From NCBI GenBank assembly GCA_964647565.1, contig CAZYIM010000054.1:1-12570 (forward strand): a stretch of 12,570 bases of DNA, written 5' to 3'. Below, piece after piece: positions 1 to 8,541 of the stretch. Within the stretch, counting starts at the first letter, position 1. Every line of letters starts with the position of its first letter. Made by a program: the position numbers and the translations under genes. The stretch comes from an uncultured Methanosarcinales archaeon (GTDB lineage: Archaea; Nanobdellota; Nanobdellia; Woesearchaeales; CAZYIM01). Under the pieces are notes generated by a model. The model saw nothing but the letters and a program-made list of their open reading frames with translations, was not told where the DNA came from and made no database searches.

Positions 1-297
1 AATTATAATGACCTAAGGGAGAATACTTATATCCCAAGATTATTGGTTTTGTATATTATGCCTACTGAAGAAGACCAATGGATGACACATAGTGAAGAAA
101 ATTTGATAAGTCGTAAGTGTGCTTACTGGTGTAATCTTAGTGGTTCTCCGGATGTAAGTAATACTACTTCTGTAACAGTTTATATTCCCAAAGAGAATGT
201 TTTAAATATTGGGGCACTAAGAGAATTAATGACAATTGCTTCAAGAAAAGATGACCTACCACACATTCTTAATGCGGGGGGTGAAAATAATGAATAA
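1..297 (+). CDS. DUF4365-like protein (predicted PD-(D/E)XK nuclease fold), C-terminal part; 5' truncated by the window edge
   Basis: Frame 1 is open from base 1: NYNDLRENTYIPRLLVLYIMP..W......L..RKCAYW.NL.G......TTSVTVYIPKEN. This matches my recollection of the DUF4365 C-terminal pattern. The stop TAA (295-297) overlaps the next ATG. Confidence 0.7.
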   Translation, partial: NYNDLRENTYIPRLLVLYIMPTEEDQWMTHSEENLISRKCAYWCNLSGSPDVSNTTSVTVYIPKENVLNIGALRELMTIASRKDDLPHILNAGGENNE

Positions 298-1420: not shown

Positions 1421-1566
1421 AGTTTTCTCGCCCCCATATTAATTTCTTTTTCGAAGAAAAAAACTATCTTAAAAGCCCCCTCTTAATAAATTTCTTAACG
1501 CAGTTAAGGCTATATGTGCGTAGCACTTGGACTCCCCCTTCCCTTTCTAAGTAATCCAAAAATTGG

Positions 1567-1655
1567 ATATAACATGGCGGATAGTCGAAGTTGCGAGTAT
1601 ATCGAGCAATTTGGGCGTAGGAGCGTGCTCCGGAGCCGACTATCCGCTGTTATGC
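1567..1655. repeat. attC-like recombination site 1 (branched imperfect inverted repeat)
   Basis: ATAACA(1569-1574)+TG bulge+GCGGATAGTCG(1577-1587) pairs with CGACTATCCGC(1637-1647)+TGTTAT(1648-1653). AAC/GTT core triplets sit at both ends. Internal stems: AAGTTGC/GCAATTT (1588-1612) and GGAGC/GCTCC (1620-1631). Confidence 0.75.
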
Positions 1656-1765
1656 TCCCGAATCCCCTACGTTAGTGGGGGTGAGGCAAGGGTTTACGTA
1701 GTAAATCCGCAGAGTTGCGCCTTTTCTTTTGGCTTTTACCCTATTTCTGGCGCAATTGAGTATAA
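1573..1765 (-). mobile_element. Putative gene-less (empty) 193-bp cassette between the two AA^C crossover points
   Basis: Bounded by two AAC cores (1571-1573, 1764-1766). GAGTATAAC (1758-1766) is complementary to GTTATGCTC (1649-1657), as expected for the reconstituted site of an excised circle. Confidence 0.6.
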
Positions 1766-1809
1766 CATGTATTAAGCGATACGGAGTTTCGTTTAATACC
1801 GTGTTATTT
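1760..1809. repeat. attC/attI-like recombination site 2 (short hairpin next to the recombinase)
   Basis: ATAACAT(1762-1768)+GTATTAAGCGA(1769-1779) pairs with TCGTTTAATAC(1789-1799)+unpaired C1800+GTGTTAT(1801-1807). It shares AATTGnnTATAACATG with site 1. Confidence 0.7.
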
Positions 1810-1851
1810 CTGTTTTTTGGGTGTGAGGTTTTATTAGGGAGGTTTGTTTTA

Positions 1852-1860: not shown

Positions 1861-2625
1861 ATGGAAAATAAGGATGATTTTCTTGCTAACAAGATTCGAG
1901 AATGGCGAATGAAGGGTTACTCGAAGAGGACTATTGAAACTTATTGCTATTTTATTCGGCGGTATAAGCAGTCGGGGATGGGGGCTTCTGATTTTGTTTA
2001 TTCTTTGGTGGCCAAGGGATATTCTACAGCATCTATTCGTCTTGTTTGTGCGGCTCTGCGAAGCTATTTGCCTGACACGCATATCCTTGTTCCTAAGAGG
2101 AAGAAGAGACTTCCGGTTGTTCTTTCCAAAAATGAGATTGAAAAAATGATTGCATCAACGCATAATCTAAAGCATCGTCTAGTTATTATACTGTTGTTCT
2201 CATCTGGTATGAGGGTTTCTGAACTGATCAATCTTTGCCTTGAAGATATTGATCTTGCTCGGAACATGATTCACTTAAAGGGCTGTAAGGGTGGTAAGGA
2301 TAGGTTAGCCTTGCTTTCGAAGAAGGCGAAAGCTGAACTTCGTAGATATGGTGTGTGTGAAGGGCTGGTTTTCTCAAAAGAGGGTAGAAAATACTCGCAT
2401 AGGTCTGTGCAGCAAATAGTATCTGATCTTGCAGTCAGAGCTGGTATTCCTAAGAGAGTAACCCCTCATACTCTTAGGCATTCATTTGCTACTCATCTGC
2501 TGGAGAGCGGTACCGATATTAGACATATTCAGAAGCTTCTTGGTCATTCTAACTTGGATACTACTCAGATTTACACTCATGTGGCCCGAAATGATTTGAG
2601 AAGAATAAAAAGTCCTTTTGATTGA
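1861..2625 (+). CDS. Tyrosine recombinase (Xer/integron-integrase-like) with a short SAM-like N-terminal domain
   Basis: Full catalytic set: R118 (SGMR), K143 (KGGKDR), H203-x-x-R206 (HTLRHSFATHLLE), H229 (LLGH) and Y238 (TQIYTHV). N-terminal GYSKRTIETY, K-LPVVLS and C-terminal SPFD resemble IntI-related recombinases. Confidence 0.95.
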   Translation: MENKDDFLANKIREWRMKGYSKRTIETYCYFIRRYKQSGMGASDFVYSLVAKGYSTASIRLVCAALRSYLPDTHILVPKRKKRLPVVLSKNEIEKMIASTHNLKHRLVIILLFSSGMRVSELINLCLEDIDLARNMIHLKGCKGGKDRLALLSKKAKAELRRYGVCEGLVFSKEGRKYSHRSVQQIVSDLAVRAGIPKRVTPHTLRHSFATHLLESGTDIRHIQKLLGHSNLDTTQIYTHVARNDLRRIKSPFD

Positions 2626-7008: not shown

Positions 7009-7248
7009 ATGACTTTTATCAAAATCAACAATACAATCCAGGATTATAAGAAATATACTAAAGAGACACTTCTTCTGAAGAACTATCTTAAGATAAAGCT
7101 AAAAGAGATCTTAAAAGAACAAGATTTCTCTCTGATAGCATTAGAGTCCGGCACCTATGATGAGGTTGTTCTTGTCTTTTACAACAAACACAAAGACCTA
7201 CAGTTGACAATGAGTGTCTTCAAGAAAGGCAAAGAGGTGTTTGTCTAG
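7009..7248 (+). CDS. Small hypothetical protein (79 aa)
   Basis: ATG-initiated ORF filling the gap, with a TATA-like ATATATAAA ~25 nt upstream. Confidence 0.55.
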   Translation: MTFIKINNTIQDYKKYTKETLLLKNYLKIKLKEILKEQDFSLIALESGTYDEVVLVFYNKHKDLQLTMSVFKKGKEVFV

Positions 7249-7324: not shown

Positions 7325-7567
7325 ATGGTGAAAGCAATGATTACACTTGGAGAAAAGCAGGACAGGATATTAACAATTGTCAAAGGCAAATACGGACTCA
7401 AGACCAAATCAGAAGCAATAAATTTGGTTATAGATAAGTTCGAAGAGGAGATTCTTGAGCCACCACTTAGGCCTGAATTTGTTGAGAAATTGAACAAGAT
7501 AAAGAAACAGAAAGGCCTCAGGTTCAAGAATGTTGATGAGCTTAGGAAAAGTATTGAAAATGCGTGA
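7325..7567 (+). CDS. Type II antitoxin, DUF2683-like (ribbon-helix-helix type)
   Basis: MVKAMITL....DRILTIVKGKYGLKTKSEAI....EEEILEP.LRPEF matches the archaeal DUF2683 pattern. SD GAGGT at 7313-7317; overlaps the toxin start. Confidence 0.8.
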   Translation: MVKAMITLGEKQDRILTIVKGKYGLKTKSEAINLVIDKFEEEILEPPLRPEFVEKLNKIKKQKGLRFKNVDELRKSIENA

Positions 7568-7829
7568 TTTTGAGATAAAGCCAATTTTAAAAAAGAAGTT
7601 GGATAAGTTGTATAAGAAAGATAGAATTCTTTGTGAATATATTTTTAAGAAGATTGATGAAATTATCAATAATCCCTATATTGAGCATTATAAAAATTTG
7701 AGATATGATTTCAAGAAATCAAAAAGGGTACATATAGGTTCATTTGTCTTGGTTTTCTGTTTTGATAAAGAAAAAGACTTTATTTATTTTGAAGATTTTA
7801 ATCATCATGATCAGATATATGGAAGCTAA
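7560..7829 (+). CDS. Type II toxin, RelE/ParE (YafQ-like) family
   Basis: 89-aa basic protein with KKIDEI..NP..HYKNLRYD....KRVHIGSFVLVF...F.HHD.IY. ATG 7560 overlaps the antitoxin stop (ATGCGTGA). Confidence 0.85.
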   Translation: MRDFEIKPILKKKLDKLYKKDRILCEYIFKKIDEIINNPYIEHYKNLRYDFKKSKRVHIGSFVLVFCFDKEKDFIYFEDFNHHDQIYGS

Positions 7830-7836
7830 AACAATA

Positions 7837-8541
7837 TTACTTTTTTTCAACCTCAATGATTTTCTGATCGATGATGAAGTTATTGCGTTTTACATTTGAT
7901 TTGAGGTAATCAATAACATCTGATTTAAGCTGTTGATACTCTTCAGGATATGTATCGAATGAGAGCTTTAGAGTTTCGAAAAGATCTTCATAATCCTTGT
8001 AGTATATGGTTGATGAGATTGTATACTCTCGAAATTCGTGATTTTTAACAAGATCCAACAGAATATCATACGTGAAGTGGTAATCTGTTTTGACTAAGGC
8101 TGCAAATGCAAGCTTGACAGGGCCGTAATCCGCAGTCTTTCCATTAACCACAAACAAAGCAATCCCGCCAGGATTCAGAGTATCTATAATCTTGTCTAAT
8201 GCTTTTCTCTTATCCTTGAAATAATAGATGACATGGGATGCAATTATTACATCATATTTTTTGTCTGTTTGAAGCTCTTCCCAATCTGAATTAATCAACT
8301 CTACATTTTTAGGAATATTGCCTATGTATTCTCTTTTTTCAACAATTAAGTATTTTTTAAAATTATTAGACATATGCTCTGCAAAGGAGGGATTAGTGCC
8401 CAGGCCAATCTCTAGGCATGTTTTAAAACCTCTTCCTTCAATTAGATTGGATATCTTATCTATAAGAATATTTTTTTCATCTGTTGCTGAAATAAATCTT
8501 TTATACCATGTTTCATTGAACTCAACTTGGTCTACAGGCAT
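7837..8541 (-). CDS. Class I SAM-dependent methyltransferase, substrate unknown
   Basis: Motif I CLEIGLG, acidic IVE, DWE, YDVIIASHVIYY and LNPGG. Confidence 0.85.
   Translation of the reverse strand: MPVDQVEFNETWYKRFISATDEKNILIDKISNLIEGRGFKTCLEIGLGTNPSFAEHMSNNFKKYLIVEKREYIGNIPKNVELINSDWEELQTDKKYDVIIASHVIYYFKDKRKALDKIIDTLNPGGIALFVVNGKTADYGPVKLAFAALVKTDYHFTYDILLDLVKNHEFREYTISSTIYYKDYEDLFETLKLSFDTYPEEYQQLKSDVIDYLKSNVKRNNFIIDQKIIEVEKK

Follow-up and report, generated by a model that had tools for sequence, protein, structure and literature searches.

Bacteria classically stockpile and shuffle accessory genes by means of integrons, whose integrase is recognized by an additional domain. The locus described here raises the question of whether cassette logic of the integron type can also operate beside a plain Xer-type enzyme, in archaea that have very small genomes and depend on gene exchange. 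It lies on the archaeal contig C54, which was analyzed over its entire length of 12,570 bp (hereafter, the window). Two candidate recombination sites, site 1 (approximately positions 1565 to 1657) and site 2 (approximately 1758 to 1811), are located there upstream of a gene for a tyrosine recombinase, a paralog of archaeal XerA, and the 193 bp between their crossover points (1573 to 1765) carry no gene. We conclude, with a probability of about 0.8, that this unit is a complete, cargo-less mobile cassette of an integron-like gene-capture platform in small archaea of the DPANN type.

Boundaries and anatomy of the 193-bp unit

Site 1 is delimited by a left arm (1565 to 1573) and a right arm (1649 to 1657), which complement each other at 6 of 9 positions, made up of the core that both have in common and one further position. 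The same right arm pairs with the left arm of site 2 (1758 to 1766) through 8 Watson-Crick pairs and one T.G wobble over 9 nt, the wobble being viable on the plus strand only. An inverted-repeat search lists this second pair as well (repeat I8; 10 nt, 90%). Both pairings and their coordinates agree with an earlier annotation of this DNA (the original prediction). The left ends of the two sites form a 16-nt direct repeat (1561 to 1576 and 1754 to 1769, 14/16, spacing 193). When folded with DNA parameters, the plus strand of each site forms an imperfect hairpin (-20.2 kcal/mol, z -3.08, for site 1; -8.8 kcal/mol, z -2.54, for site 2), and folding is less pronounced for the stretch between the sites (z -1.70). 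When the 193-bp unit is folded as circular single-stranded DNA, its two ends pair, as the cassette model expects. Since only 5 arm positions are informative within the window, the arm match seen there could be a chance one: its probability is about 2% from composition, and 72 of 765 unrelated arm pairs from the same site family (about 9%) reach 4/5.

It is the replication of this arm rule in orthologous loci and related arrays that identifies 1573 to 1765 as one circularly permuted cassette. The rule was examined in seven loci that have both a complex site and a recombinase-proximal site, the window included. The right arm of the distal site is complementary to the left arm of the proximal site at 32 of 35 variable positions, and this pairing is found in all seven loci; the distal site's own left arm reaches 12/35, and pairs drawn from different loci average 1.55/5. 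Upon permutation of the labels, only the true pairing (1 of 5040) attains the observed complementarity sum. Within 8 related arrays, at least 4/5 positions match in 15 of the 19 consecutive site pairs, 11 of which are perfect, as against only 3 of 28 sites for the two arms of one and the same site. The four failures mostly span long gaps (2.2 to 3.7 kb), where, at a guess, a weaker intervening site has been missed. In six loci, a second element, homologous to site 1 and the 60 to 110 nt after it, lies 370 to 1130 bp further upstream than the recombinase-proximal hairpin. The near-invariant core letters co-vary on both arms in two places (L003/L115 and L112), which would locate the crossover on the right-hand side of core position -2, in agreement with the boundary proposed earlier. 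Locus L112, where a core letter is changed and the partner arm matches, amounts to a natural double mutant of the core. The limits originally proposed for the cassette, 1573 and 1765, are thus borne out by the seven loci and the array pairs; its insertion as a circle, proposed at the same time, gains support from the circular permutation of the arms, from which it would follow.

The absence of a gene from the unit has also been confirmed. No open reading frame (ORF) of at least 20 aa lies wholly inside 1573 to 1765; all 6 ORFs of this size that overlap the interval cross one of its boundaries, and the two longest of these have no Pfam match. Approximately 165 of the 193 nt belong to the site module (Table 1), and because a 27-nt T-rich loop with a short stem replaces the gene, the unit is little more than a recombination module. 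Complex sites of this family have cores of 93 to 175 nt with a conserved three-way junction. The accessory part has counterparts as well: in relatives, too, a complex site is followed by a homologous stretch (alignment A1), the closest look-alike being the one after the first site of L116. The position of the cargo stem matches the place where relatives carry genes. Their cargo is bracketed by inverted repeats that extend from directly after the accessory end motif to just before the arm; exact repeats of 10 to 16 bp are found in 17 of 26 cassettes (shuffled controls average 5 to 7.7, with a maximum of 9 to 13), and in 13 of 26 the right-hand copy ends 0 to 3 nt before the arm.

Table 1. Features of the window around the 193-bp unit, with the unit and its parts listed first
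Feature	Position (strand)	Size or score	Description
Cargo-less cassette (proposed)	1573-1765 (+)	193 bp	Between the two crossover points
Complex folded site (site 1)	1573-1657 (+)		Predicted crossover letter 1573; core pairs 1571-1574 with 1648-1651
Bulge of site 1	1575-1576 (+)	2 nt
Inner (L) stem	1577-1587 with 1637-1647 (+)	11 bp	Perfect arms, repeat I4
Helix P2	1588-1612 (+)		Conserved 5-bp base
Helix P3	~1620-1631 (+)		Part of site 1
Right arm of site 1	1649-1657 (+)
Accessory part	1658-1714 (+)		Mini-hairpins ~1664-1681 and 1690-1708, conserved end motif
Cargo stem	1715-1721 with 1749-1755 (+)	7 bp	Encloses 27-nt T-rich loop, 1722-1748
Conserved 4-nt motif and cassette's own left arm	1754-1757 and 1758-1765 (+)		Predicted to pair with 1649-1657 in the circle
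Site 2 (putative attI-like docking site)	1766-1811 (+)		Recombinase-proximal simple hairpin; right arm 1803-1811 in this genome
XerA-paralog tyrosine recombinase	1861-2625 (+)	254 aa; PF00589, 1.2e-38
Distal flank	1556-1572 (+)		A-run, conserved 4-nt motif, site 1 left arm up to crossover
Motif left of array	1506-1546 (+)		TATA-like run, GNA-type mini-hairpin, C-run; outside the cassette
ORF	236-1420	394 aa	Low-GC block; without Pfam or NCBIfam match
DUF4365 protein fragment (end)	1-297		Low-GC block

Sites, recombinase and metagenomic contexts

Conservation of the complex site was assessed with a covariance model, R1, built from 7 sequences and 20 hand-set pairs. In its alignment, 94.3% of the cells are paired and 10 pairs have changed on both sides; none of 500 shuffles scored as high, and slid controls reached 29 to 55%. 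When extended to 28 sites, the 560 cells include 499 Watson-Crick pairs, 36 G.T pairs and 3 A.C pairs. Such compensatory changes in the stems support the earlier proposal that the sites work as folded hairpins. The 5-bp base of helix P2 is invariant in the 7-sequence alignment; across the 28 sites, its G.T pair never varies, and each of its other four pairs is retained in 25 to 27. The conserved 4-nt motif and the arm layout are also common to the 28 sites.

When searched against its own genome, R1 gives a single match, site 1, with 70 bits (E value of 7e-13), which is mid-range for the family. It matches 31 of 61 relatives and, in a sample taken across the phylum, 68 of 151 genomes, which belong to this order and to other orders of the class. 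Complex sites are found in 2 to 8 copies per genome, in arrays and also away from any recombinase gene. R1 matches and the recombinase gene occur together in 11 contigs, in each of which the matches lie upstream of the gene and on its strand. Examples of such arrays are those with 5 sites in G006:C2, 4 each in G017:C13 and G051:C57, and 3 each in G028:C3 and G002:C77. Three further contigs (G020:C4, G024:C37 and G059:C20) have 2 to 5 complex sites and no matched recombinase gene, a counterpart of the clusters of attC sites lacking integron integrases (CALINs).

The cargo of the relatives measures 0.3 to 3.9 kb, and Pfam matches were obtained for 11 of its 24 ORFs. The encoded proteins include LemA, GlpM, a phosphoesterase with an SMC-like ATPase, a hydrolase, Fic, an AbiEii-like ATPase, SurE, a prenyltransferase and TrmB. 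Among 17 gene-bearing cassettes, 8 have their longest cargo ORF on the same strand as the site and 9 have it on the other strand, and cargo genes that face both ways imply that there is no operon-like read-out from one promoter. The original prediction had the array read on the minus strand. This stands only by integron convention, with the site at the far end of the cassette and the array leading away from the recombinase gene; the longest ORFs are split almost evenly between the strands, and the wobble pairs favor folding of the plus strand. Three other families likewise have ORF-less units of this construction, with lengths of 175 bp (G123:C3), 231 bp (G020:C4) and 300 bp (G028:C3), the last of these as a nearly identical tandem pair (positions 2543 to 3142 of L112). 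A common origin of the loops in the 193-bp unit and the 231-bp unit was considered and rejected, as their pairwise alignment is poor outside the site parts.

Site 2 is of a different kind and matches R1 only weakly (20.8 and 17.6 bits). A similar hairpin is found 110 to 191 bp before the start codon of the closer orthologs of the recombinase gene (44 to 52% identity), where a pattern search detects it in 14 of 30 loci and visual inspection adds 5. In 8 of the 30 loci, the contig stops no more than 350 bp upstream of the recombinase gene, in several cases at the docking hairpin; assemblies break where neighboring DNA differs among cells. The longer inverted repeat I1 (1556 to 1577 versus 1799 to 1820, 17/22) connects the sequence left of site 1 with that right of site 2. 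The impression is that the docking site, when empty, was itself a closed cassette-like hairpin, which would fit a platform holding one cassette. This is only suggestive, because A-runs before the arm are a habit of the family and because the relatives, inspected by eye, lack such pairing.

The recombinase scores 215.2 bits against the archaeal XerA model NF040815 (cut-off of 220) and 172.7 bits, in two stretches, against the integron integrase model TIGR02249 (cut-off of 265). Its best solved relative is XerA of P. abyssi (162.7 bits), with which it is colinear over residues 5 to 248. The alignment with IntI4 (2a3v) is split, query residues 12 to 161 and 182 to 252 corresponding to residues 9 to 178 and 246 to 316, so that about 47 residues are missing at the IntI-specific domain. 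A relative of the recombinase is encoded in 45 of 61 genomes searched, including its own. In a tree of 46 proteins, it belongs to a clade of 22 rows (support of 97/99) that includes 12 of the 13 hairpin-linked rows and none of the 11 rows linked to a dif-type palindrome. The second Xer copy of the same genome (contig C48) groups with the palindrome-linked rows, on a weakly supported branch. Judging from these sequences, many genomes encode two paralogs, one apparently housekeeping and the other array-linked.

Palindromes were scanned as two 10-nt arms (9 to 10 of 10 positions complementary) around a 6-nt spacer. Near-perfect ones lie 28 to 128 bp upstream of housekeeping-type xerA in L019, L026, L120 and L135, in some cases adjoining a TATA box. 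No dif-like palindrome was found upstream of the C48 gene, which directly follows another ORF. In Thermococcales, dif is located away from xerA (Cortez et al. 2010, PMC2958812), unlike the relatives with a dif-like site beside their own recombinase gene.

The unit was also found in metagenomes. Four marine or seawater runs from two studies contain the stretch, and no RNA run was found to contain it; the four were compared at the level of assembled contigs and k-mer depth. The piece from 1568/9 to 1768 is present in all four runs without a differing letter, at a depth of 13.1 to 13.8, as against 2.6 to 4.7 for the recombinase gene and the DNA beyond it, and the metagenome contigs break at both cores of the unit. 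Past 1768, the contigs of runs X2 and X3 do not enter site 2 but another complex site, whereas record 28 of run X4 (piece 1749 to 1899) bridges the cassette into site 2 as in the window. On the left, runs X4 and X2 have other letters before 1558, and a short high-depth piece (1548 to 1579) runs in X3 into yet another site. Contig pieces over 1506 to 1539 have a depth of 10.7, with different letters on both sides. An identical unit that runs into different sites on either side must occupy several contexts, and we read these data as showing that the 193-bp unit stands in several array positions or genomes. The presence of several contexts within one community suggests ongoing mobility. A search of Joint Genome Institute (JGI) metagenome contigs with an exact 35-nt piece of the unit gave 0 matches. 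Relatives of the recombinase in metagenome contigs have at best 48% identity and are mostly generic Xer proteins; R1, run on L031 to L033 only, gave no listed match, so that these contigs yielded no alternative cassette content for the platform.

Proposed mechanism, alternatives and genomic setting

In the mechanism that we propose, the platform would consist of the gene for the XerA-paralog recombinase, a docking hairpin (site 2) upstream of its promoter, and cassettes with one large folded site each. A free cassette would be a circle in which the two 9-nt arms pair. The arms, the bulged spacer and the variable, always paired inner stem would then imitate a two-armed Xer site on the plus strand. 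Where the arm meets the spacer, the paralog would exchange one strand pair with the docking hairpin or another site, and exchange beside the invariant core triplet would open the circle. Opening the circle would separate the arms, so that the right arm of each site comes to match the next left arm towards the recombinase. The recombination product would be fixed by replication, as is the product of single-strand exchange in integrons and CTX phage. Folding of the module may be made independent of the cargo by the bracket stem together with the accessory hairpins. The 193-bp unit itself most likely persists as a non-autonomous, self-propagating minimal cassette copied by the system, and its T-rich loop could possibly also terminate plus-strand transcripts that run towards the recombinase, or insulate the recombinase promoter from the array.

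Several observations weigh against the interpretation of the unit as a mobile cassette. Taken alone, the arm match in the window is within chance, and the 7-bp cargo stem is not significant by itself (shuffle maximum of 9). The strand bias of the wobble pairs comes mostly from one invariant pair (28 of the 36 G.T cells), in an alignment that was fitted to the plus strand. The assembled genome has one complex site and no second copy of the unit, so that no array is visible here. In the assembled contigs of the four runs, for which no joints are listed, we saw no excision circle, empty-site junction or recombination event. The high k-mer depth sums over organisms and is not a copy number; besides, X2 and X3 look like almost identical data, and the sample from which the genome was assembled may be one of those sequenced in the runs. 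The recombinase is linked to the sites by position and phylogeny only. The labels behind the tree counts come from crude patterns, with 22 of 46 rows unlabeled, and one flagged and one array-linked row (L133 and L131) fall outside the clade, where they form a separate small clade.

These points have to be set against what the alternatives leave unexplained. Were the element a fixed leader of the recombinase gene, transcribed as a structured noncoding RNA or 5' regulatory element and not mobile, one could understand why it is conserved, with its accessory part, upstream of orthologs in at least six other families, why, as judged by eye, several sites have TATA-like boxes 20 to 40 nt to their left and plus-strand T-runs after the accessory part, and why the G.T pair, which fits a plus-strand transcript, is invariant. 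However, a transcript fold cannot explain the arm rule, because each arm's partner lies across the cargo: the partner of 1649 to 1657 is found beyond it, at a distance of up to 4 kb in relatives, and the arm that stands adjacent is the neighbor's. The 2 to 8 sites per genome, in arrays and also away from the recombinase, the other metagenomic contexts of the unit and the lack of an Rfam match add to this, and we regard such a leader as very unlikely. It is unlikely, too, that the unit is a dead remnant of a gene-bearing cassette, its cargo having been deleted between the cargo-stem repeats. The 27-nt loop does stand where relatives hold 0.3 to 3.9 kb, and inverted repeats are plausibly prone to deletion, but the site, the accessory part and both arms are intact, with an R1 score (70 bits) in the middle of the family range; a letter-identical unit recurs in several contexts at 3 to 5 times the depth of its neighbors, and ORF-less units of the same build are present in 3 other families. 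A remnant origin and present mobility are in any case compatible.

The two remaining alternatives concern the sites themselves. The hairpins, with their paired boxes, bulge and cassette logic identical to that of attC sites, might belong to a classical integron fragment, a CALIN served by an IntI encoded elsewhere, with the Xer-like gene as a bystander; Nanoarchaeota genomes with 2 to 4 attC sites and no IntI are indeed listed in Data S1/S3 of Ghaly et al. (2022, PMC9668308). We find this highly improbable. The arrays adjoin the XerA-paralog gene in 11 of 11 shared contigs, and that paralog forms a clade of its own; the arms depart at some positions from the canonical attC box consensus, and the cargo faces both ways. 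The genome, which is 87% complete, has 6 tyrosine-recombinase matches, none shown to be an IntI, of which only the one in the window was scored against TIGR02249. A tandem duplication of one hairpin, with arms that are complementary by chance, would account for the 16-nt direct repeat at both left ends and would be compatible with the in-window significance of about 2 to 9%, but it deserves almost no credence, given that the sites are of two kinds (70 versus approximately 20 bits with R1) and that the offset pairing recurs in 7/7 loci and 15/19 array pairs.

As far as its sequence allows this to be judged, the system is not a classical integron, and we reject that assignment in favor of an integron-like variant built on an Xer paralog. 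The interpretation of the unit as a mobile cassette bears on the origin of integron integrases from Xer recombinases and on how DPANN archaea acquire accessory and defense genes, and it may explain archaeal attC clusters without an integrase. Since the 193-nt unit contains every conserved part of the site and nothing else, it is a natural substrate for binding, cleavage and structural work. We would give slightly less than even odds to a broader view, according to which a DPANN gene-capture system arose from Xer, independently of or in parallel to bacterial integrons; its paralog would recombine large single-stranded modules with the cargo looped out by an insulating stem, and the 193-bp unit would be a minimal selfish rider that moves between array positions in present-day marine populations. 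If this holds, the unit would be a ready minimal substrate for reconstituting the reaction.

The genome that contains the window is 87% complete, with 2.68 Mb in 86 contigs and a GC content of 38%. The class I CCA-adding enzyme encoded in the window reaches the equivalog score, which marks the contig as archaeal. The listed relatives are from the same order, one per family, and mostly have small genomes (0.6 to 2.1 Mb), and the host lineage would accordingly be placed among small, DPANN-type archaea. With 2.68 Mb and an estimated contamination of 1.85%, this genome is larger than any of the 60 relatives listed from the order; either the organism is exceptional in size or the bin contains more than one strain. 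No further copy of the unit, site 1, site 2 or the motif at 1495 to 1556 was found in the assembled genome, where the searches returned only 15-nt chance matches. The partner arm originally predicted on the left has no match on the plus strand of 1 to 1564, the contig starting at window position 1, and the 52 matches of its 9-mer across the genome are scattered, none of them in a site context by eye.

To the left of position 1500, the GC content is 0.26 to 0.39, and to the right it is 0.38 to 0.48. The stretch from 1 to 1500 resembles accessory or defense-island DNA, and it could be a further large cassette truncated by the contig end. The motif at 1506 to 1546 is multi-copy in the metagenomes and has a near-identical counterpart upstream of the recombinase gene in L016; the arrays of L111 and L113 contain variants of it. 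It may act as a promoter carried by cassettes or as a second type of cassette-end signal. The distal flank belongs either to the next cassette or to an ancestral docking site. Elsewhere in the window, a 99-aa ORF (7530 to 7829) has a weak ParE-toxin match (22.6 bits, cut-off of 23) and may form a toxin-antitoxin pair with the 79-aa ORF upstream of it (7009 to 7248). At a permissive threshold, Rfam gave no match in 1400 to 1900 and two weak, chance-level matches elsewhere; a hairpin at 7801 to 7876 has a chance-level microRNA match. A scan of the window for tRNA and tmRNA found 0 genes.

Comparison with known systems

In the literature that we searched on archaeal integrons and Xer recombination, we found no description of Xer-linked cassette arrays. 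With integrons, the system shares circularly permuted cassettes with one folded site each, and sites with paired outer and inner boxes separated by unpaired bases (here the core pairs, a 2-nt bulge, an 11-bp inner stem and a branched terminal part). The crossover beside an invariant triplet, with a cassette start that complements its own far arm, is also common to both, as are arrays that lead away from the recombinase gene from a docking site beside a promoter, assemblies that break at the sites, and a cargo of accessory genes. In contrast to integrons, the recombinase lacks the IntI-specific insertion near patch III and falls among archaeal XerA proteins; the sites are larger, with a three-way junction, an accessory hairpin region and a cargo-bracketing stem; the docking site is itself a hairpin; and instead of co-oriented cassettes served by one platform promoter, which were not encountered, the cargo faces both ways. 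We know of no attC site with a bracket stem or accessory hairpins. The invariant triplet is present, whereas the purine/pyrimidine pattern of 1760 to 1766 and 1649 to 1655 departs at some positions from the attC consensus. In the study of Ghaly et al. (2022, PMC9668308), archaeal integrons are defined by the presence of an IntI that has the additional domain.

CTX phage has a folded single-stranded site that mimics a duplex Xer site, and the sites described here would share this feature. With the archaeal XerA/dif system, they have in common an Xer-family enzyme, a two-armed site, a short central region and a crossover at the border of the arm and the central region (Cortez et al. 2010, PMC2958812). 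The differences are that a dedicated paralog stands beside the array, in place of the housekeeping enzyme, and that the single 28-bp two-armed dif per chromosome is replaced by multicopy hairpins in direct-oriented tandem arrays. The housekeeping copy of the relatives, on the other hand, has a plain palindrome directly upstream, with two arms of approximately 10 to 11 nt and a 6-nt spacer. Unlike elements that exploit Xer, the array has no phage or plasmid backbone. With integrative mobile elements exploiting Xer (IMEX) and plasmid dif (pdif) modules, it shares the absence of a recombinase gene from the cassettes themselves, but it differs in having folded, direct-oriented sites beside a dedicated paralog.

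The closest parallel to the unit as such is offered by the gene-less cassettes of Vibrionaceae superintegrons, which are likewise bounded by recombination sites and contain no ORF. Most gene-less Vibrio cassettes have experimentally shown promoter activity, and regulation of neighboring genes is the leading idea of their function put forward by Blanco et al. (2024, PMC11014356). The 193-bp unit differs from these cassettes in that its non-site part is only a 27-nt T-rich loop, which makes it look like a bare recombination module.

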